Assembly (NCBI RefSeq): GCF_988242995.1
Contig: NZ_OZ547043.1
Length of the DNA: 64,000 nucleotides
Reading direction: 5' to 3' (one strand)
This document shows, piece after piece, positions 3,916-45,542 of the stretch. Under the pieces are notes generated by a model. The model made no database searches and had not been told where the DNA came from. It worked only from the letters and a program-made list of their open reading frames with translations. The stretch's first letter is position 1. The number at the start of each line of letters is the position of its first letter. The position numbers and the translations under genes are program-made.

Positions 3916-4093
3916 TGTTTATTTATCACTTTGGCAGAGTAATTATCCTGTGCACTATTAATAGCAATGTCGCCATGCACATTTACCTTGCAGTTAATTG
4001 AATAAAAATTTAACTGGCATCAGTCCTAAAAAAATTGATTTCATCCGCAGGCTATTGACAGAATAATTCAGACTGGTCTTTCAGGCATCCAGA

Positions 4094-4572: not shown

Positions 4573-6156
4573 ATGGAATGGATTGCCGATCCGTCTATCT
4601 GGGCCGGGTTAATCACGCTGATTGTGATCGAACTGGTCCTCGGCATTGATAACCTGGTCTTTATTGCCATCCTCGCCGAAAAACTACCGCCGAAGCAGCG
4701 CGACCGCGCACGGGTTACCGGGCTGTTGCTGGCGATGTTAATGCGCCTGTTACTGCTGGCGTCAATCTCCTGGCTGGTCACCCTGACGCAACCGCTGTTC
4801 AGCTTCCGCTCGTTTACCTTTAGCGCCCGCGACTTAATCATGCTGTTTGGTGGTTTCTTCCTGTTGTTCAAAGCCACGATGGAGCTGAACGAACGGCTGG
4901 AAGGGAAAGACAGCAATAATCCCACACAACGCAAAGGTGCGAAGTTCTGGGGGGTGGTGACACAAATTGTGGTACTGGACGCCATCTTCTCTCTCGACTC
5001 AGTGATTACCGCCGTCGGGATGGTCGACCATTTACTGGTCATGATGGCCGCCGTGGTTATCGCTATCAGCCTGATGTTGATGGCCAGCAAGCCGTTAACG
5101 CAATTTGTTAACAGTCACCCGACCATCGTTATTCTCTGCTTAAGCTTCCTGTTGATGATTGGCTTTAGCCTGGTGGCAGAAGGTTTCGGCTTCGTCATTC
5201 CGAAAGGCTACCTGTACGCTGCTATTGGTTTCTCGGTGATGATCGAGGCGCTCAATCAGTTGGCTATCTTTAACCGGCGACGTTTTCTTTCCGCTAACCA
5301 GACGCTGCGCCAGCGGACTACCGAAGCGGTAATGCGCCTGCTTAGCGGGCAAAAAGAAGATGCGGAACTGGACGCCGAAACCGCGTCCATGCTGGTGGAT
5401 CATGGTAACCAGCAGATCTTTAATCCGCAGGAACGGCGGATGATTGAGCGGGTACTTAATCTTAACCAGCGTACCGTCAGCAGCATTATGACGTCGCGCC
5501 ACGATATTGAGCATATCGATCTCAACGCGCCGGAAGAAGAAATCCGCCAGTTACTGGAGCGAAACCAGCATACGCGGCTGGTGGTTACCGACGGTGATGA
5601 CGCAGAAGATTTGCTCGGTGTTGTTCACGTTATCGACCTGCTACAACAGTCACTGCGCGGCGAACCGCTCAACCTGCGGGTGTTGATTCGCCAGCCGCTG
5701 GTGTTCCCGGAAACCTTGCCGTTGTTACCTGCCCTGGAGCAGTTCCGTAATGCCCGCACACACTTTGCTTTTGTGGTGGATGAGTTTGGCTCGGTGGAAG
5801 GGATTGTGACATTAAGTGACGTCACTGAAACCATTGCCGGTAACTTACCGAACGAAGTGGAAGAGATCGACGCCCGCCATGATATTCAGAAGAATGCGGA
5901 CGGTTCCTGGACGGCGAATGGTCATATGCCGCTGGAAGATCTGGTGCAATATGTGCCGTTGCCGCTGGATGAAAAACGTGAATATCACACCATTGCCGGG
6001 CTATTGATGGAATATTTGCAACGTATTCCAAAACCTGGCGAAGAAGTTCAGGTGGGGGATTATTTGCTTAAAACGTTGCAGGTGGAAAGCCATCGCGTGC
6101 AGAAGGTGCAGATTATTCCGCTGCGTAAGGATGGCGAGATGGAGTACGAGGTGTGA
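4573..6156 (+). CDS. yegH: Inner-membrane protein YegH (TerC-like N-terminus plus CBS/CorC-type C-terminus)
   Basis: ORF track 4507..6156; start moved to ATG 4573 ([12 protein letters not shown]...), giving 527 aa; multiple TM helices then a soluble C-terminal domain. Confidence 0.85.
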
Positions 6157-6223: not shown

Positions 6224-8077
6224 CTACATCTTCTCCAGCAACTTCTTCACATCTTTGCCATTGCGGGAATCTTTATTCCGCTCGGCCCAGTCGTTAAGAC
6301 GGCGTTTTGCTTCATCCTGTAGATGTTTACGCAGTAACTGATCCACTTGCAGGCTGTAATTAAGTTGCTGCCAGTTGCCATAAACCCGCAGCGGTACTGG
6401 CGTTTCTTTGAGGAAATCAATCAGTTTGCTTTCCCCGTTCCAGCCCCCCACGACCCGAATATCAAACTGGGTGTCACAGGTTTGATCTGCCAGATTCAAC
6501 ATGCCTTCCCCTGTCAGCACCAGCACAGGCGATTGACCTTGCATGTCGTTTAACGTCACGACGCCATCCTTCAACGTCAAATCGGTGGTAAAGCGGTCAA
6601 GACGCGTCACGTTATCGAAGTTTTCAGCGGCCTTCACATCACCACCATTACGTTCTACCGCTTGCTGAATCATCTGCTGGAAGTTCATCCCTTCCATGCG
6701 TGTATCAGTCATTTCGACATGTGCCTGCCCTTGCCAGTTGTGGCGGAATGCGTCGGCATCTATGTCAGCACCGGAGAAATCACCAGCCAGTGACATCTTT
6801 CCGGTCAACGAAATCGGATAGTTAAACGCCTTCAGAATGGTGCCAATCTCAACGTTTTCCAGCCGTGGCTGGAAGTTTATCCGCGGATTTATTGATGTCG
6901 CGTCCAACGTGCCCGGCAGTGAAACCTGTCCACCGTTAAGTTTGCCCTGCAGTTGAGTAATTTCCAGCAAACCCGACTTGTTGGTCATTTGCGTGGCAAC
7001 ATCTGTAAAATTCATTCCGCGCCAGCGCACGTTACTGGCCTGCAACAAAATATCAGCCGTAAAGCCTTGCAGTCCCTGATAGGCCGGTTCATCAATACGC
7101 GAAGAAATGACCGGGCGCGGCAACGTTGATTGGCTCTGCCCTTGCTGCGCGGCACCGTTCTCACCGTTCGCTGTTTCATTAAGGGGGATGAGGTTGTCAA
7201 GATTCAGTTGCGGGAATTGCAGTCTCAGCTGCCATTCCGGTTTCTCTGTCAACGTGACCTGTGCTTGCCCGCTCAGCGTACTGTCATTGGCGGTCAAACT
7301 AATTTGGTTAAATGAAAGGCGTTTATGTGACTCCTGCCACTGGACCTGGAAACTCCCCTGCCCCTGAATACCTTGTTTTGGTAAATCTGCACCCTGCAAC
7401 TGCCAGTTAACTTGTTCAATAGCCGCCGTTAAATCATGCGGATAATCAGAAGCATCTACCGTACCGTTAAGGGATATCGTGAGATCGCGCTGATCGCGAT
7501 TAACCCGCCCGGAGAACTCAAATGAACCACGATGTTGGGGATCTTGTTCCATTTGCAGGCGAATATTGCGGATTGTCACCTGCTCGTCATCTTCATGCTG
7601 GAACACCAGCACGCTGTCCGCCACCTTAAGACTGGATATATCAAACGACCATCCGCGATCGTCTGACAGATCCGGCAAGGTATTGTCGCGTGGTGCAACC
7701 GGGGCATCTTCACTGCGTACCGCTTCCGTCTGCGGCGTCAGTTGGATCACTGCCCCTTTTAGCATCACCTGCTTAACGCTCAGTTGATGACTCAGCAGTG
7801 GTAAAAGCGCCACGTCCAGACGCATGTTGTCTGCGCGAACCAGTGGCTGGCTCGCGCCCTGGGCAGTGAGAGACATTCGCCCGGAGAGGATACTAAGCTG
7901 CGGCCAGACGTGCCAACGCAGTGGCCCGTCGAGCTGCAATTGATAACCGCTACGTGCAGCAACTTGCTTGACCATATAGTCGCGGAAATCATTCGGATTC
8001 ACCAGCAACACTAACGCAGATAACCCGGCCACCAGCACGACCAGGAGTATCATCAGCGTCGTCAGAAATCGTCTCAT
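6224..8077 (-). CDS. asmA: Outer-membrane assembly protein AsmA
   Basis: 617-aa ORF with N-terminal TM anchor (MRRFLTTLMILLVVLVAGL); conserved position upstream of dcd. Confidence 0.9.
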   Translation of the reverse strand: MRRFLTTLMILLVVLVAGLSALVLLVNPNDFRDYMVKQVAARSGYQLQLDGPLRWHVWPQLSILSGRMSLTAQGASQPLVRADNMRLDVALLPLLSHQLSVKQVMLKGAVIQLTPQTEAVRSEDAPVAPRDNTLPDLSDDRGWSFDISSLKVADSVLVFQHEDDEQVTIRNIRLQMEQDPQHRGSFEFSGRVNRDQRDLTISLNGTVDASDYPHDLTAAIEQVNWQLQGADLPKQGIQGQGSFQVQWQESHKRLSFNQISLTANDSTLSGQAQVTLTEKPEWQLRLQFPQLNLDNLIPLNETANGENGAAQQGQSQSTLPRPVISSRIDEPAYQGLQGFTADILLQASNVRWRGMNFTDVATQMTNKSGLLEITQLQGKLNGGQVSLPGTLDATSINPRINFQPRLENVEIGTILKAFNYPISLTGKMSLAGDFSGADIDADAFRHNWQGQAHVEMTDTRMEGMNFQQMIQQAVERNGGDVKAAENFDNVTRLDRFTTDLTLKDGVVTLNDMQGQSPVLVLTGEGMLNLADQTCDTQFDIRVVGGWNGESKLIDFLKETPVPLRVYGNWQQLNYSLQVDQLLRKHLQDEAKRRLNDWAERNKDSRNGKDVKKLLEKM

Positions 8078-38699: not shown

Positions 38700-39890
38700 T
38701 TAATTGCTGTTAACCGAGGTGACCAGATTTGCCAGGTATTTATCGGTAATACGCTGGCGCAGGGTCAGGTTTTCAAGAGGAGGCACCGGTGTATAGTCGT
38801 AGTCGATATACAGTTTTCCGGCCTTGAGGGTTTCCGCATCGTTGGATTCTTCGCTGAACCAGCAGGTCGCATCCACGATATAGCCGTTTGTTTTCAGCTC
38901 ACGGAATTTGGCATTGATGCCGTCAACGATGTCGCGAATCAGCGTTGCGGTGATGGGCTTGTCCACCGCCCACATGTGCGCCTCAGCCATCGTGTCGGCC
39001 ATCACCTGCGCGGTGCGGGTGTAGTTTTCAAAGAGGAACAGCGGGTCATCAGAGCAGGTACGGTTACCCCAGAATCGGAAACCGTCGCGGCGAATCAGCG
39101 TAGTGACGCCTGACTCGTTAAGCAGGTCAGCATCGGTGCCGGACTCCTGCAAATCCCAGAATACAGATGCGCTGATGCCGGTAACACCGTTTACCCCGAC
39201 GTTGGACAGCGTTTTATGCCAGCCCTGCTCCTGGTCGATTTTAGCGCGCAGACCCAGCGCACGGGCGGTGGCATACGCGGTGGCGGTGGTACTGGTGACC
39301 GTATCCCATGCGAGGAAATCCGGCCAGATGACCATCAGCTCACGCTGGCTGAAATTCTGGCGGTAGGCTTTCACCTCGGAAATGGTCTTACAGCCCCATG
39401 CGCTGATATATCCGAAAGCGCGCAGCTTCTGACAGACGGATGCCAGTGCAACAGCCACCTCTTTGGTATCCAGTCCCGGCACGCCGAGAATACGCGGTTT
39501 AACACCGGTTACCGACTCCGCCGCCAGCAGGGCTTTCAGTCCGGTGTACTGACCGTTTTCGTCGGTGGTGCCGATGATATTGGAAACGGTCTGCGCAAGT
39601 TTCGTTTCCTCGTCATCACCGGTGCCGTCTTCCACGCGCACGACAACGGTGACCGGTTTTGACTGGTCAGCGATGGCCTGCAACGATGCCGCCAGCGTGC
39701 CTTTTTTACCGGCCTTTGCAATTGCGCTCTGCACATTGGTAATCAGCACCGGTTTATTGAGGGGGAAGGTTTCCGCATCCGCATCGCTGGCCGTGCAGAC
39801 CATGCCGACAATGGCAGTGGATACGGTGGAAATGACGCGGGTGCCGTCGTTAATCTCCAGCACCTGCACGCCGTGATGATAGTCACTCAT
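38700..39890 (-). CDS. FI: Contractile tail sheath protein gpFI
   Basis: 396-aa ORF beginning MSDYHHGVQVLEINDGTRVISTVSTAIVG. Confidence 0.9.
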   Translation of the reverse strand: MSDYHHGVQVLEINDGTRVISTVSTAIVGMVCTASDADAETFPLNKPVLITNVQSAIAKAGKKGTLAASLQAIADQSKPVTVVVRVEDGTGDDEETKLAQTVSNIIGTTDENGQYTGLKALLAAESVTGVKPRILGVPGLDTKEVAVALASVCQKLRAFGYISAWGCKTISEVKAYRQNFSQRELMVIWPDFLAWDTVTSTTATAYATARALGLRAKIDQEQGWHKTLSNVGVNGVTGISASVFWDLQESGTDADLLNESGVTTLIRRDGFRFWGNRTCSDDPLFLFENYTRTAQVMADTMAEAHMWAVDKPITATLIRDIVDGINAKFRELKTNGYIVDATCWFSEESNDAETLKAGKLYIDYDYTPVPPLENLTLRQRITDKYLANLVTSVNSN

Positions 39891-40257
39891 CCGTTTAACT
39901 CCGTGGTTAATGGGTGCAACTATTTTCTGTTGTGCAGAGCATGAGACGCTATTTGCCCTGGATGGTCAGTGGATGAAACAACAGATACAGAAAAGGCGGG
40001 CAATTCGCCCGCATTTCCTAATTTGTACTAACCCAGCTTCCAACTGACAATTTACGTAGCCAAAAAGCTATCAAGTCTGGCAGACTGATTTGTACGAGGT
40101 GTGGATAACCATAATTATGTGCATGCTAACATCACGGTGCATGAGTCAATCGGGTCTATGCCAAAGAATTACGCCTTGATTGACCATAGATTGCTTGCCC
40201 TTGAATTTGACCATTCCAATAAAATGAATTATGATAATCGTCAAATGGAGGTGCACA

Positions 40258-40902
40258 ATGATCAAACACACCGCAGCAGAAAGGGAAACCAACACTTCAG
40301 CTAAGCTGAATGAATACCAGTTGAACCTTCTGAAAAGAATTAACAACCTCGCTATTTCCCTGATGCCTGAATTTGAAGACAAAAACCAGGCAATTAATGC
40401 TATCACGCTGGATGATAGTTCACTGATGCAATTGCTCTACACCGTTCAACTCGAACAGAAGACTCGTGTCAATGACTACGAACTACGTAAAGTGCGCCGT
40501 CGTCGCGAAAATCTGGAACGATTTTATCGTGGGCTTCAGGAGTTAGGCGGTACGCTAAAGGTAAATGACGTGGTCGATATTCTTGGAATCACCCGCCAGG
40601 CGATCAACATTCGCGTTAAGAAGAACAAGCTTTTAGCATTCAAGCAGAACGGTGATTTTATTTTCCCGAAATTTCAGTTCACAGATAACGGGCTGATTCC
40701 CGGCTTTGAAGACGTAATGGCGGCATTTGACGAGAATACCCATCCAATGCTGAGGTTGGGTGTGCTGAAATCACCAATAGAGGTTAATAGCGAAGGCCTG
40801 AAAAAGACGCCGATTCAAATCATGCAGGACGGCGCTAAAAATAGTGAACTTAGTCTGGCTATCCGTGCCGCTAAACAGTTCGGAAATCATGTATCCAGTT
40901 AA
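40258..40902 (+). CDS. Hotspot cargo: HTH protein with C-terminal MbcA/ParS (DUF2384)-like toxin-binding region; putative antitoxin or regulator
   Basis: ORF track 40231..40902; ATG 40258 has a GGAGG RBS, giving 214 aa. Central HTH-like segment (VVDILGITRQAINIRVKKN); C-terminal SPIEVNSEGLKKTPIQIMQDG...LSLAIRAAKQFG resembles the MbcA/ParS toxin-binding domain as recalled; not in the P2 core. Confidence 0.45.
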   Translation: MIKHTAAERETNTSAKLNEYQLNLLKRINNLAISLMPEFEDKNQAINAITLDDSSLMQLLYTVQLEQKTRVNDYELRKVRRRRENLERFYRGLQELGGTLKVNDVVDILGITRQAINIRVKKNKLLAFKQNGDFIFPKFQFTDNGLIPGFEDVMAAFDENTHPMLRLGVLKSPIEVNSEGLKKTPIQIMQDGAKNSELSLAIRAAKQFGNHVSS

Positions 40903-40908
40903 TTGTTT

Positions 40909-40940
40909 TAAAAAGAGGGGCTAGCCAGCCCCTCTTTGGT
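40909..40940. terminator. Bidirectional intrinsic terminator between the convergent cargo genes
   Basis: Hairpin AGAGGGGCT-AGCC-AGCCCCTCT flanked by T-rich runs on both strands, lying in the 38-bp gap between the two stop codons. Confidence 0.6.
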
Positions 40941-41651
40941 TTACATTGGTTCTGGCGTAATTTCGAATCCAAGCAGTTCTTCGAACATCTCTTCACCTGA
41001 CATCGTTCCTTTGTGCCACCCTTTAGGGAAGATACCTTCGTCATTTTCGATGTAACTGGCATAAGGCACCATCCCCTGAGGGGTATCGGTAAAGGCTGGT
41101 GTACTATCCGGTCGTTCCCAAAAGGCATAACAGCGTTTATAGCGTTTATGCCTTGAGGTATAGGCTATCCCGTCATAGTCACGCCCGAAATGTGTATAAA
41201 GATGTTCCATTAGCCATTGAGTAAAAGTGTAATCCTCGTTCTCTAAGCTATCCAAAGGAATATGTAACAACTCACAGAGCGCTACAACATCGATCACTTT
41301 CACTGGCCTCATGACATCCACAGAGCACATATAGTGTTGTGAAAGTACCGATTCAGGATAAGAAATCGTCCCTTCGAGATGGAGCAAACGCCCATAAGCT
41401 TCTGCCGCCGCCGTTAACGCAGAGTCAGAGGCATACCATACCGCCACACATCCCCCTGGGGGGTTGTATCGCCCACATTCATTTTCCTCAATTGGCGCTC
41501 TGAAGTTGATTGCGCTTTCATACAACGCCCTTTGATGACGCTTCAAAAGACCAGAGCCTGGTTGAATGTCAATCGCCGGAATACGTCCAGATTTATTTTT
41601 TGCAGCAATTCCTTGTGCAACAATATTTTTTTCAAATGTCCATTTGGTCAT
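40941..41651 (-). CDS. Hotspot cargo: RES-domain protein (putative NAD+-consuming toxin)
   Basis: ORF track 40941..41699; ATG 41651 has an AAGGAG RBS, giving 236 aa. N-terminal CGRYNPPGGCVAVWYASDSALTAAAE matches the RES signature GGRWNPP...Y.A.S...A..E (Arg, Glu); later DGIAYTSRH supplies the conserved Ser. Confidence 0.55.
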   Translation of the reverse strand: MTKWTFEKNIVAQGIAAKNKSGRIPAIDIQPGSGLLKRHQRALYESAINFRAPIEENECGRYNPPGGCVAVWYASDSALTAAAEAYGRLLHLEGTISYPESVLSQHYMCSVDVMRPVKVIDVVALCELLHIPLDSLENEDYTFTQWLMEHLYTHFGRDYDGIAYTSRHKRYKRCYAFWERPDSTPAFTDTPQGMVPYASYIENDEGIFPKGWHKGTMSGEEMFEELLGFEITPEPM

Positions 41652-42066
41652 TTTTACTACTCCTTCTATAAACAGATTAAGCCATAGGCTCCTCTCCATA
41701 TTGATTGAAAATAATCCCTACCGTGCTTGCCCGGCAGGGGGTATGAGAACATGTGTATCTCAATCTCGATTATACCAAGCAAATTTTCTATTTTTCGGAA
41801 ATTTAGAGAGTTTTTTTAATGCTTCGCATGCCTTCTCGATGTATTGATGGGGCTGAAAAGAAGAAATAACGCAGGAAGTTTTACGGAAAGGAGAACTATA
41901 AAGATTTTTTTCAAGTGAATTAGAAATAAGAACTTCGCAGGATACTGCATTTTTAGTGAAGATGGGTTGAGTTTCTCAGCAAGAGTCCCGCGAGAGCCGT
42001 ATTGACAGCATGCATGACTCGGAGATTATTCCCCATGCAGGATGGTACACCAATGCAAGAGTTGGT

Positions 42067-42255
42067 TTACGCAAATGATTGGATGATCGCGATTACCGAC
42101 CGTACATTGCGCAAATAACGTTCTGCGTCGATGCTATTAAGATGCCCCGACCACACCGTACGACGGACGCCGTAGTGATCCGAGCTTAAGAATAGATAAT
42201 CTTTTCTCTCCGGATTCACCGTTCGCAGTGCGTTTTCCATAGCTGTCGCAAGCAC
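42067..42255 (-). CDS. Small hypothetical ORF in the Z/fun-equivalent region
   Basis: 62-aa ORF (MLATAMENALRTVNPERKDYLFLSSDHYGVRR...) without a recognisable RBS; may be a gene remnant. Confidence 0.2.
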   Translation of the reverse strand: MLATAMENALRTVNPERKDYLFLSSDHYGVRRTVWSGHLNSIDAERYLRNVRSVIAIIQSFA

Positions 42256-42345
42256 AATACTTCCGCTACAGGCACAGAGCGGACTGTCAGATTAGGTTTT
42301 ACTCTGTGCCATAGATGAGTAATCTCACACCAGATCTAATACGAT

Positions 42346-42924
42346 TTATTGTGGCATTTCAGGCCATTCTATATCCGGAGCATCTTCCGGCTGAACGCGA
42401 TTCAGTAGCACACGGTATTTTTTCCAGTGTGTCAGGCTTAACTTTTCTTCCTCGGTAGCCATATCTAAATCGACAGCATCCTGCAGCGTGGCAATAATTT
42501 CACCTGCATATGCAATCAGCTCTTTCTTCTGAGAGTCAGCCGCTCTGACAAGCGCATCACGCTCTGCATTCTCATCATTCACCCACGCATTTCCGTTCCA
42601 TTTCTGATAATCCCCATCCGGGGAAATGGCTGTCACGTCTGGAGGTAATGCGCCAAGTTCAGAAATATAAATGGCTGCTCCCGTTTTCGTTTCGTAGACA
42701 GTCTTTCCGCGATGATCTTCCATCAACTCCCATTTTATTTCATCTGCATTGAAAACGGCTGCATAACCAGCCGGTATATCAGGCGGCGCAATATCTGTAC
42801 TGTTTGCAGGCAGACCTGTATACGGTGGAATATACGCGTCACTTTCCCCAATAAATTCATTGGTTCCATCAAGTAAATTAAATACGCGGATAGTTTGTGC
42901 TTCTGCACTCATTCTGAAAGCCAT
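42346..42924 (-). CDS. G: Tail fiber assembly chaperone (gpG/Tfa-like)
   Basis: 192-aa ORF immediately downstream of and overlapping the tail fiber gene stop; conserved position. Confidence 0.7.
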
Positions 42925-45542
42925 TATGCAAGCCTCACAATATAGTTAAATGCGATGTTTTTTACGGTATTTTCTGTATTACCTGTAGCATTAACGGTAA
43001 TAGAGTGCCCGTGTGAGCCAATAGCAACCGTGTGTGAATGTGCACCAATACCAACAGTATGGTTATGTGCTCCAATGTCGACTGTATGTGCATGATTGCC
43101 TGATGAACTTGTAGTCGTAGCACCTTTATCACTTCGCGGAACACCATAATCTGCACCGCCTGATTGCACGCTCACAGCAAAACCGACGGTATGTGTATGA
43201 TTGCCAGAAGTATTGGTTGATTTTGTGCCGTGGTTAAACGTACTGACTGTTTTTGTCCCGTAATCAAATGAACTGGTTGTTTTCGTTCCCAAATCCGTAT
43301 TTGACGCACTGGCGCTGTGAGTATGCGATTTAATCCCGTCCTGTTCCTGTGACAATACGGCACGCCCACTGGCAGGTTTGCCCTTGATTGTCCAGCCGCG
43401 CATATCAGGAATAACACCTGAAGGATAGGCAACAGCCAGTTTCGGATATGCAGCCTTATCAAACGTCTGCCCCTGCATAATTGCATAGCCCGCAGGTGGT
43501 GTATCTGATGGCCACGGCAACGGAACACCTGGCGGAAACGCTTCAATATCTTTCGTCCCGTCAAACGTTACGCCATTAATCGCCCTTGCCGTTTTCAGCT
43601 TTGTAGCTGTAGCCGCATTGCCGGACAGTTCGCCTGAAAGACCGGCGCTGAAGGTTTGTTTCGCCGCCCATGTCTGAGCTTCGTCGATAATTGGCACACG
43701 TCTTGTCGTGATCGTGCGGCTTCCCGGATTTCCTGAAATACGCACCATAAAAAAGCGGTAGTTCGCTTTACTTACAGTGCTGCGCCATACATGCATTGAG
43801 CGCCCAGTACCGGAATCATCACTCGGACCAACTGCGATGTTTATCAGGTTGCCATCAATGACGCCCCAGTCCATACCGTCGGGAATATTGGTCATGTTAT
43901 CAAGCCGAACGGTTATCAGACTGCCCGGCACAAAGTCGTGGGTCTGCCAGTCCAGGCTGGTGAGTTTTGCCACTGCACCGCCGATACCCAGATTCAGGGG
44001 AAGTGAATACGAGGTGTAGACTTCCCGCCATTCGCTCCACGAGCTGCCGGTATAGACGCGCTCAAACGTGCGACCTTTAAGGGTTGCACCTGTTCCGGCA
44101 GTTGTATAACGCTGCCATACGTTAACACCATCAAAGCGCCTCAACACTTCCAGAATACCGAGGACTGTCACGCCGTTTCCGTCCAGTATTGGACCGTTGG
44201 TCGCTTTACCTGTAACGCTGTAAATACCTGGTGAAGTCACATCATTCAAATCCCCGTCGTAATAACGACTCTCTGACTGATGACCGACTCTTAACCACGG
44301 TTCCCACTGCGGATTTGATGCATCCCAGCTTGCCGCAAGGCAGCGGACATACATATTTCCACGGCGAGTGGTATAACGTTGCGTTCTTCCATAATTCCCG
44401 CCTTCGAGGATCTCAAGCGTCCCCTGAGCAAAGCCGCCTTCCTCTGGATAATTGCGTTCATATGAAGCTATAGCCGAGCTACTGTTACGCCATAAACCAA
44501 GATGTTCGGCGGCTCCAAGCGTATTCAGGTCTATAGTCGTACTCAAAGGGCGGGTAGCTGATTGAGTGTGACGCCATACGCCCCATGGACCATCAGTACC
44601 ATTCCACTGATTGGCGAGTTTACGCATGTATACATTGCCGTCTCTCGTGATAAAGCGTTGCGTGCCTGCAAAATTGCCGGCAGCAAAAACCTCAAGCACA
44701 CCGACAGCATTATCTTCCGGGAAATTTTTCTCCAGTGTTGCGTTAGTTGAGGTAGCTTTAGACCAGATCCCCAGATAAGCCTTAACGGGACCAAATGTAT
44801 TCAGATCAGCATCAACCGGCATTTCGCCGTTGTTTTTCATAAACGTCAGGCTGGTAACGCCAACATTGTCCAGAAAAGCGTCCTTATCTGGAATATCGCC
44901 ACCGTTCTGGTCTTTCTGCAGACGTTTCTCAGCATTGTCATAGGCTGCTTTTACTGCCTTTGGCGTTGCCGCCAGCTTTTCACTGGTGCTGTTTGTTGCA
45001 CTGCTTAACTGAGTAAAACCTTTTTCTGTCAGCGTGGCGTCAGGATGGCGGCGGGACTGCTCATGCTCTGCGATTTTGTCATCGACGTAATCCTGCGTCG
45101 CCATCACCGTGCTGGCATCAATACTCAGCTCAACGGACGCCACGTTGCTGAGAATAATAACCATGCGGCAGGTCTGCGCACGTCCGGAGCCTTCAGCCAG
45201 TTCTGGCTTATAGCTTTCTGCCATGTTGGATACCGCAATCAGTGTTCCGGCATCGTCATACAGACCAAGCTCACGCATCCAGAAGCCGCCCACTTCGGGC
45301 GGTACAACCAGTTCAGCCACGATATAGTTTTTATTCTTGTTATCCACGCTGACTTTATTCAGAGCGTGACGCCAGACCTCATGCACCAGTTTCGTCTGAC
45401 CGGCATCCGGCACCGGCAATTTGCCATTACCGTCACCCACGGCCATTGCAGACAGGTTTACTTTTTTCCCGCCGGGGACAGTGGCGGCTGCCAGCTTTGC
45501 GGCTCCGGCAGTAGTGATAACGGTTTTAAATTTCGTGCTCAT
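42924..45542 (-). CDS. H: Tail fiber protein gpH, mosaic, with His-box-rich C-terminal receptor-binding region
   Basis: 872-aa ORF; P2 H-like N-terminus ([40 protein letters not shown]...); C-terminal repeated GNHxHTV/GxHxH motifs. Confidence 0.85.

Follow-up and report, generated by a model that had tools for sequence, protein, structure and literature searches.

We analyzed a 64,000-nucleotide stretch of contig NZ_OZ547043.1 (NCBI RefSeq assembly GCF_988242995.1), referred to here as the window, in which the tail region of a P2-like prophage is encoded on the minus strand. Between its tail-fibre assembly gene G and its tail sheath gene FI, at the position of fun(Z) in phage P2, lie two convergent genes, one for a RES-domain toxin and the other for a protein of 214 amino acids (aa). 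Our subject is the 694-bp interval from the RES start codon to the stop of gene G (41652-42345). This gap consists of three pieces, namely the promoter and folded leader of RES, a dead fragment of an IS66-family element and the repeat bordering the Z/fun slot (Table 1). It is a real feature and a largely ordinary one: the three pieces are probably unrelated, meeting at a junction left by a mobile RES cassette that was captured into the Z/fun slot of the prophage, with RES controlled in part through its leader.

Composition of the interval between RES and gene G

The original prediction described about 700 bp of non-coding, AT-rich DNA with one weak 62-aa open reading frame (ORF), and this description is correct, with no credible gene present and a GC content of 0.43 versus 0.53 for the window. 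The 62-aa ORF is the longest lying wholly within the interval, and two longer listed ORFs merely enter its RES end (a 93-aa frame at 41566..41847 on the plus strand and a 252-aa RES frame from 41699). RES begins at the ATG at 41651, the same start chosen by RefSeq and its Prokaryotic Genome Annotation Pipeline in identical Escherichia coli prophages. An N-terminal extension of 16 codons from the in-frame ATG at 41699 was rejected, as relatives do not keep this frame open, with a frameshift in locus L011 and a TAA after the ATG in L015, L023 and L025, and the gap therefore truly begins at 41652. The stretch is carried by 9 of 5,426 complete E. coli genomes at 99.3-99.4% identity, in none of which does RefSeq annotate anything within the interval. 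The AT-richness is real (GC 0.429 for the whole gap versus 0.526 for the window) but uneven: GC content is 0.341 in the promoter and upstream DNA, 0.416 in the leader, 0.452 in the phage repeat and 0.495 in the IS66 relic, placing the low GC mostly in the RES-proximal 330 bp.

The piece adjoining gene G is phage P2 backbone. The Z/fun repeat and the variable Z slot have reportedly been known since 2004, through work by Nilsson et al. in Mol Biol Evol 21:1. Dozens of P2-like phages match this piece over 81-90 bp at roughly 84-89% identity, and four GenBank entries (AJ512676, AJ512681, AJ512683 and AJ512685) annotate the matching stretch as the 'left inverted repeat' of the Z region. Its hairpin arms are GGCACAGAG (42271-42279) and CTCTGTGCC (42302-42310), with the core CGGACTGTCAG between them. 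Compared with reference phage P2 by blastn, homology stops at 42262 and resumes at 40083, and the foreign insert therefore spans 40084-42261 (2,178 bp). On the FI side, a putative, degenerate 'right inverted repeat' was not recovered at up to 6 mismatches, yet it aligns with phage P2-EC30 and with plasmid copies of the cassette. Its position matches that of relatives (L004, L006, L029, L035 and L036), in which the repeat core lies at the equivalent place, ~160-185 bp upstream of the partner gene.

The hairpin repeat also flanks the cassette outside phages. In L029, for example, the bracketing copies lie at 5211-5235 and 7272-7296. Other copies separate small accessory genes on Klebsiella and Salmonella plasmids (L039 at 3153, 3932-3951 and 5014-5033; L040 at 5001-5072) or, in K. 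michiganensis, bracket DUF2268 and GrpB plus DUF4440 genes near a serine recombinase and an IS110 element, and about 59 of 66 matching plasmid records match the hairpin repeat element alone. More generally, the repeat may mark the boundaries of cassettes or serve for recombination. Inside the adjacent coding sequence of gene G, a sub-threshold match to Rfam family IS009 was also seen (42383-42581, minus strand; 52 bits versus a gathering threshold of 117, E = 2e-10).

The middle piece comes from the 3' end of an IS66-family element and has decayed. Positions 41992-42238 show a distant blastn match (68% identity) to a plasmid gene of Pantoea dispersa annotated as an IS66-family transposase, and the 62-aa ORF matches residues 438-492 of the 512-residue TnpC of the P. 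dispersa IS66 (32 of 55 identical, 58%; tblastn, E = 4e-13). No family in Pfam or NCBIfam was matched by this ORF, which is a TnpC fragment and not a gene. The terminal repeat of the relic aligns with the intact right inverted repeat of the P. dispersa element (...CAATACGGTTCTCACTACACGCTTAC), which ends in GTAAGCG... and has an 8-bp target duplication. Its tip at 41979 has decayed from GTAAGC to GCAAGA (GCAAGAGTCC, aligned to GTAAGCGTCC in Proteus and GTAAGCGTGT in P. dispersa) and is intact at the homologous place in Proteus (GGACGCTTAC). Relatives hold the same TnpC fragment with differing internal deletions, the version in the window being the longest. A complete IS66 element is absent, with only ~283 bp present and neither a left end nor a target duplication found. 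The inverted repeat at 40120-40137, considered as a second IS66 end, was rejected and is instead part of the conserved flank of the cassette in all contexts. IS66 relics are commonplace, and this one probably has no function of its own. Separately, one metagenome gene call (protein P0140) joins an IS66 C-terminal domain to RES.

Comparison with other genomes points to the order in which these pieces came together. Within the lineage of the window, the unit reads: repeat, IS66 relic, AT-rich upstream DNA, promoter and leader, RES, partner, repeat. The fusion of repeat to relic occurs at the identical nucleotide in three non-phage contexts (L029, L008 from Pluralibacter gergoviae, and L028), which are flanked by genes for HerA, an IS110 transposase, LysR, a MurQ-like protein and a sensor kinase; across this region, these copies and that of the window differ in internal deletions alone. 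Because the fusion point is the same outside phages, the relic was already joined to the repeat before the cassette entered phage P2 in this lineage, and the sequences thus indicate that the prophage gained the relic along with the cassette and that it was not formed in situ. Plasmids and chromosomes also carry the whole 2.18-kb cassette, relic included, bounded by these repeats, and the two genes together with their upstream DNA are found on plasmids, islands and chromosomes; L003, L006 and L011 are without the relic. Positions 41652-41978 are 78-88% identical to unannotated DNA that adjoins this RES gene on plasmids of Pantoea, Klebsiella and Rahnella, with lower identity in the E. coli A28 island.

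Where a toxin gene in a phage hotspot adjoins a long 'empty' spacer, the spacer can thus document the arrival of the cargo, and a false lead is removed. Small intergenic pseudogene scraps in P2/P4 defence hotspots have been described as recombination remnants (bioRxiv 10.64898/2026.02.27.708500), and an IS66-scarred, repeat-bounded RES cassette that moves as a unit among plasmids, chromosomes and the Z/fun slot fits this view. On plasmids and conjugative islands (L004, L003 and L021), the cassette sits among genes for ArdA, ArdC, umuDC, a DNA methyltransferase and TraI, which are typical leading-region anti-defence neighbours. Pseudogene copies also occur, with RES truncated at 51 and 82 codons in Pantoea sp. 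Mb-10 and Rahnella ecdela (L009 and L012), the latter having two leader copies on one contig.

Table 1 Positions of the features discussed, in window coordinates
Feature	Coordinates	Strand	Remarks
Tail sheath gene FI	38700-39890	-	P2-like tail region
Degenerate 'right inverted repeat', FI side	40060-40097	.	Aligns with P2-EC30 and plasmid cassette flanks
Winged-helix DNA-binding protein, 214 aa	40258-40902	+	Convergent; candidate RES partner/antitoxin
Bidirectional intrinsic terminator between the convergent genes	40912-40937	.	11-bp stem (6 GC pairs), flanked by A and T runs
RES-domain toxin gene, 236 aa	40941-41651	-	Pfam RES PF08808, E = 1.5e-12, 48 bits versus cut-off 23
RES Shine-Dalgarno sequence AAGGAG	41660-41665	-	8 nt before ATG 41651; conserved in alignments
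Near-invariant leader block AATCAATATGGAGAGGAGCCTATGGCTTAATCTGT	41672-41706	-	GGAG motifs and mini-ORF
Mini-ORF ATG GCT TAA (Met-Ala-stop)	41685->41677	-	ATG 7-8 nt after GGAG
Leader hairpin P2 and U tract	41707-41739	-	Terminator-like; listed by terminator scan
Leader hairpin P1	41745-41761	-	Predicted 5' end of RES mRNA
Predicted RES promoter, extended -10 TGGTATAAT	41777->41769	-	Invariant in five BLAST-found cassettes
AT-rich region native to the RES cassette	41778-41978	-	GC 0.34
Decayed 3' end of IS66-family element	41979-42261 (~283 bp)	-	TnpC C-terminal remnant and right terminal inverted repeat
62-aa ORF	42067-42255	-	Frame-preserved TnpC fragment
Phage P2 backbone, Z/fun 'left inverted repeat'	42262-42345 (84 bp)	.	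Just downstream of gene G
Gene G, tail-fibre assembly	42346-42924	-	Pfam Caudo_TAP, E = 3e-40
Gene H	42924-45542	-	P2-like tail region

Promoter and leader of RES

The third piece belongs to the cassette itself. Its AT-rich 200 bp are 65-81% identical to DNA at the same position beside RES on Pantoea, Klebsiella and Rahnella plasmids and in the E. coli A28 island, with homology fading in more distant cassettes, and they probably have no function of their own. On the plus strand at 41926-41955, relatives hold a 9-14 codon ORF (MITSLDTVF..., with AGGAG 8 nt upstream in Pantoea), which is lost in the window because its ATG reads ATA. Next to this region lies the predicted RES promoter, with a weak -35-like hexamer (CCGAAA, 41798 to 41793), and the start of RES transcription is predicted from the sequence to lie near 41762. 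A TATAAT-like hexamer is found at the same place throughout the leader set described below, preceded in most cases by an extended TG, which is absent in L021, L009 and L025 (GGGTA..) and in L023 (AGGTGTAAT). The sequence beside the -10 hexamer (ATAATCG), considered as an operator common to both promoters of the module, was rejected, as it is not kept in diverged cassettes. That the gap carries a promoter, regulatory elements or a small RNA for RES, as had been suggested, is thus upheld for the RES-proximal ~150 bp, with their extended -10 and covarying leader hairpin.

We compared 24 distinct leader sequences from 27 loci, each 113-122 nt long (~113 nt in the window), 7 of which came from two exact-match pattern searches. 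All follow a common plan, consisting of hairpin P1, hairpin P2, a U-rich tract, the block ATGGAG-N3-4-GCCTATGGCYTRATCTG, AAGGAG and the RES ATG, and the leader folds better than shuffled sequences (z -2.2). Hairpin P1 comprises 4-8 bp at the same position in every sequence class; its sequences are unrelated while its stability is kept. Hairpin P2, running from 41739 to 41716, has a stem of 8 pairs (6 GC; CCCTGCCG and CGGTAGGG) closed by the loop GGCAAGCA and is directly followed by the U-rich tract AUUAUUUUC (41715 to 41707). In an alignment that was not fitted to any structure, both sides had changed in six of these eight pairs, giving variants such as CCCTGCC/GGTAGGG, CCCAGCC/GGCTGGG, CTCTG/CAGAG and CCTTG/CAAGG. 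The covariation score was reached by 0 of 500 shuffles and was far lower in slid controls, and RNAalifold recovered the same helix. With its U tract, which is strong in the clade of the window, hairpin P2 looks like an intrinsic terminator or attenuator, a role that we predict from its sequence.

Downstream of the hairpins, conservation takes a different form. The ~55 nt from the U tract to the RES ribosome-binding site show one substitution across five BLAST-found cassettes, compared with 77-88% identity (12-23% divergence) at the third codon positions of their RES genes. The mini-ORF start codon is kept in all 24 leaders and is followed by an ORF of 2-9 codons; GCT/GCC and TAA/TGA variants preserve Met-Ala-stop, and two lineages have five and nine sense codons before the stop. 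When a degenerate pattern of the block was searched in a metagenome collection, it occurred at 12 places, 12/12 of them upstream of RES homologues. This structured leader of a small Enterobacterales RES subfamily is undescribed, of modest novelty and a candidate cis-regulatory element.

The convergent partner and rival readings of the gap

RES, named 'RES family NAD+ phosphorylase' by RefSeq, belongs to a subfamily of 34 protein clusters within the Enterobacterales, and in 13/13 independent contexts it is followed by a convergent gene of 213-214 aa. The 214-aa protein had no match in Pfam, NCBIfam, PADLOC or PDB sequences, and its one profile match, to Rv2175c, is weak (E = 0.023). Its predicted structure is confident for residues 95-210, and the DNA-binding domain appears to be a winged helix of the Rv2175c type, similar to MerR and excisionases, with no match to Pfam DUF2384. 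This protein is likely the partner of RES and a candidate for its antitoxin, and the module is a non-canonical RES pair rather than a RES orphan; a literature search by the RefSeq accessions found no paper. The partner has its own promoter (TTGACC-17-TATGAT, 40207-40250), flanked by the conserved inverted half-sites TTGACCATT and AATCGTCAA, which form a perfect palindrome in L013 and are probably autoregulatory. After the half-sites lies AATCGTCAAATGGAGG, which is similar to the AATCAATATGGAGAGG of the RES leader block.

We propose that RES is controlled at several levels. The gene would be transcribed from its own promoter, with hairpin P1 capping and stabilizing the 5' end of the transcript and with hairpin P2 and the U tract terminating most transcripts from this promoter by attenuation. 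The annotated V-operon terminator of phage P2 (15639-15666) lies within the part of P2 that the insert replaced, which leaves hairpin P2 as the first strong terminator-like site met by late transcription coming from gene G. The same hairpin would thus also stop read-through from the late V-to-G operon and keep toxin mRNA low. The invariant block, with its three GGA motifs and its mini-ORF, would tune ribosome access to the RES start, and neutralization of the toxin would fall to the convergent winged-helix protein and not to the gap. If so, the conserved leader would offer a handle on how the module stays silent in the lysogen and is released on infection.

Several points weigh against this reading. 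The start site, termination at hairpin P2 and the role of the mini-ORF are predictions. With 7 of the 24 leaders coming from exact-match searches, the apparent invariance of the block is inflated, in part by construction, and the block helix found by RNAalifold shows no covariation because its columns are invariant; conservation of the block could equally act at the DNA level. Because L023 and L025 have a weak U tract, termination is not the sole reason for keeping hairpin P2, whose loop GGGCAAGCAC is conserved in most lineages, a feature that this reading does not account for. The most distant cassettes (L024 and L026) are without the leader. For the partner, synteny and a weak fold similarity make the antitoxin role suggestive, and homologues of it also occur without RES. 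Such homologues (66-67% identity) were found in L017/L018 (3001-3630) and L019 (1896-2537 and 3001-3642); one of them sits behind a large integrase, facing a convergent pair of reverse-transcriptase and AAA_21 ATPase genes, and another is present as two tandem copies. Rather than being dedicated to RES as its antitoxin, the partner may be a regulator that different defence modules reuse.

The conservation of the block at the nucleotide level, without covariation, would also be expected if it, and perhaps the hairpin P2 loop, served as DNA operators for the winged-helix protein, a reading that we consider unlikely. It draws on the 11-bp palindrome AGCC-TAT-GGCT within the block, on the DNA-binding fold of the partner and on the promoter of the partner, where the conserved half-sites are joined by an AATC..ATGGAG stretch resembling the block. 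These half-sites, however, are not found in the RES leader, the covarying stem of hairpin P2 argues for base pairing, and the predicted start is followed by the block only after ~60-100 nt, an unusual position for a repressor.

We regard it as rather improbable that the leader is a dedicated RNA-level control device for a toxin with a convergently encoded protein partner, representing a new class of cis-regulatory RNA for RES toxins in phage defence hotspots. Under such a scheme, the winged-helix partner, the toxin or a phage product might bind a terminated ~55-nt transcript or the hairpin loop and so switch RES on during infection, and the mini-ORF might act as a ribosome trap. An equally doubtful proposal makes the unit of P1, P2 and U tract an independent small RNA of ~55 nt, acting in trans or as an RNA antitoxin through the conserved loop. 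The terminator-like hairpin does lie within about 55 nt of the promoter, its stem covaries around a mostly conserved loop as in kissing-loop regulators, and the succession of promoter, RNA, terminator and toxin resembles type III toxin-antitoxin (TA) loci. Against this, Tandem Repeats Finder found no tandem RNA repeats upstream of the toxin and a repeat search gave weak two-copy matches alone; Rfam covariance models run over 39800-43000 gave no match at E <= 1 in 41652-42345; the loop differs in L015, L031 and L038; and the U tract is poor in L023 and L025. The sole complement of the loop found in the cassette, TTGCTTGCCC at 40191-40200 upstream of the partner gene, pairs perfectly over 9 nt (duplex -18.1 kcal/mol, with 0 of 100 shuffles as good). 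Pairing or kissing of the loop with DNA or RNA at this place was nonetheless rejected because the complement is present in the lineage of the window alone.

The original prediction also raised the decay of an ancestral antitoxin gene, and we find this very unlikely. In canonical RES systems, for example mbcA-mbcT, the antitoxin gene comes first in an operon (PMC6436930), and the gap is long enough for a gene of this kind, in this case an upstream Xre-type antitoxin of a once-canonical operon. But its only ORF is the IS66 TnpC fragment, no frame has antitoxin similarity, and the upstream region is free of genes in every context examined; promoter and leader abut RES in the 24 distinct leader sequences of the subfamily, and the upstream spacer of RES in the Kalamiella cassette is just 120 bp. 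The conserved partner gene lies downstream in all 13 contexts. We likewise give almost no weight to reading the conserved non-coding DNA as a single-strand promoter of the Frpo/ssi type from plasmid leading regions: the plasmid neighbours (ArdA, ArdC, umuDC and methyltransferase) are typical leading-region genes, but 41700-41990 as single-stranded DNA folds no better than shuffles on either strand (z +0.91 and +0.93), and no long inverted repeats were found. Nor did the proposed remnant of a displaced P2 Z/fun gene survive comparison and it is just as improbable, for although the gap lies in the Z/fun slot that separates G from FI, the best tblastn hit of P2 Fun(Z) (528 aa) in 39891-42345 had an E of 0.17 and fell outside the gap, and by blastn only the end of G with the repeat and the FI-proximal backbone are shared with phage P2.

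Comparison with known systems

Each part of the locus has a recognizable counterpart. Like the Z/fun locus of P2-like coliphages (GenBank AJ512676-AJ512685), it lies between G and FI, retains the left repeat (roughly 84-89% identity) and holds foreign, defence-like cargo; phage P2-EC30, for example, carries Abi-P2 in the same slot (PMC9508834). It differs in that the cargo is a RES module with an IS66 relic and the right repeat is degenerate. The relic, in turn, shares with IS66-family insertion sequences (tnpA-tnpB-tnpC) homology to the C-terminus of TnpC (58% over 55 aa) as well as a recognizable right terminal repeat, but only the last ~280 bp survive, without tnpA, tnpB, left end or target duplication, and their junction with the hairpin repeat has the same position whether the copy is phage-borne or not.

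The layout of the leader is that of attenuator leaders and of type III TA loci such as ToxIN, in which a promoter is followed by a short structured RNA, a terminator-like hairpin and then the toxin gene. Unlike those systems, the RES leader lacks tandem RNA repeats, has no leader peptide ahead of the terminator, matches no known ligand or Rfam family and has a terminator that is predicted.

The Xre-RES type II TA systems (MbcA-MbcT, ParS-ParT and NatR-NatT) share with this module a RES-domain toxin. They differ from it in the partner, which here is convergent, downstream and transcribed from its own promoter rather than placed upstream in an operon: no antitoxin gene immediately upstream of RES and co-transcribed with it is present in 41652-42345, and the partner sits behind the bidirectional terminator. 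The partner also appears to be a MerR/excisionase-like winged helix of the Rv2175c type rather than Xre, and the toxin has a structured leader of its own. This RES subfamily thus breaks the antitoxin-first operon rule through a convergent winged-helix partner, an architecture that is modestly new.

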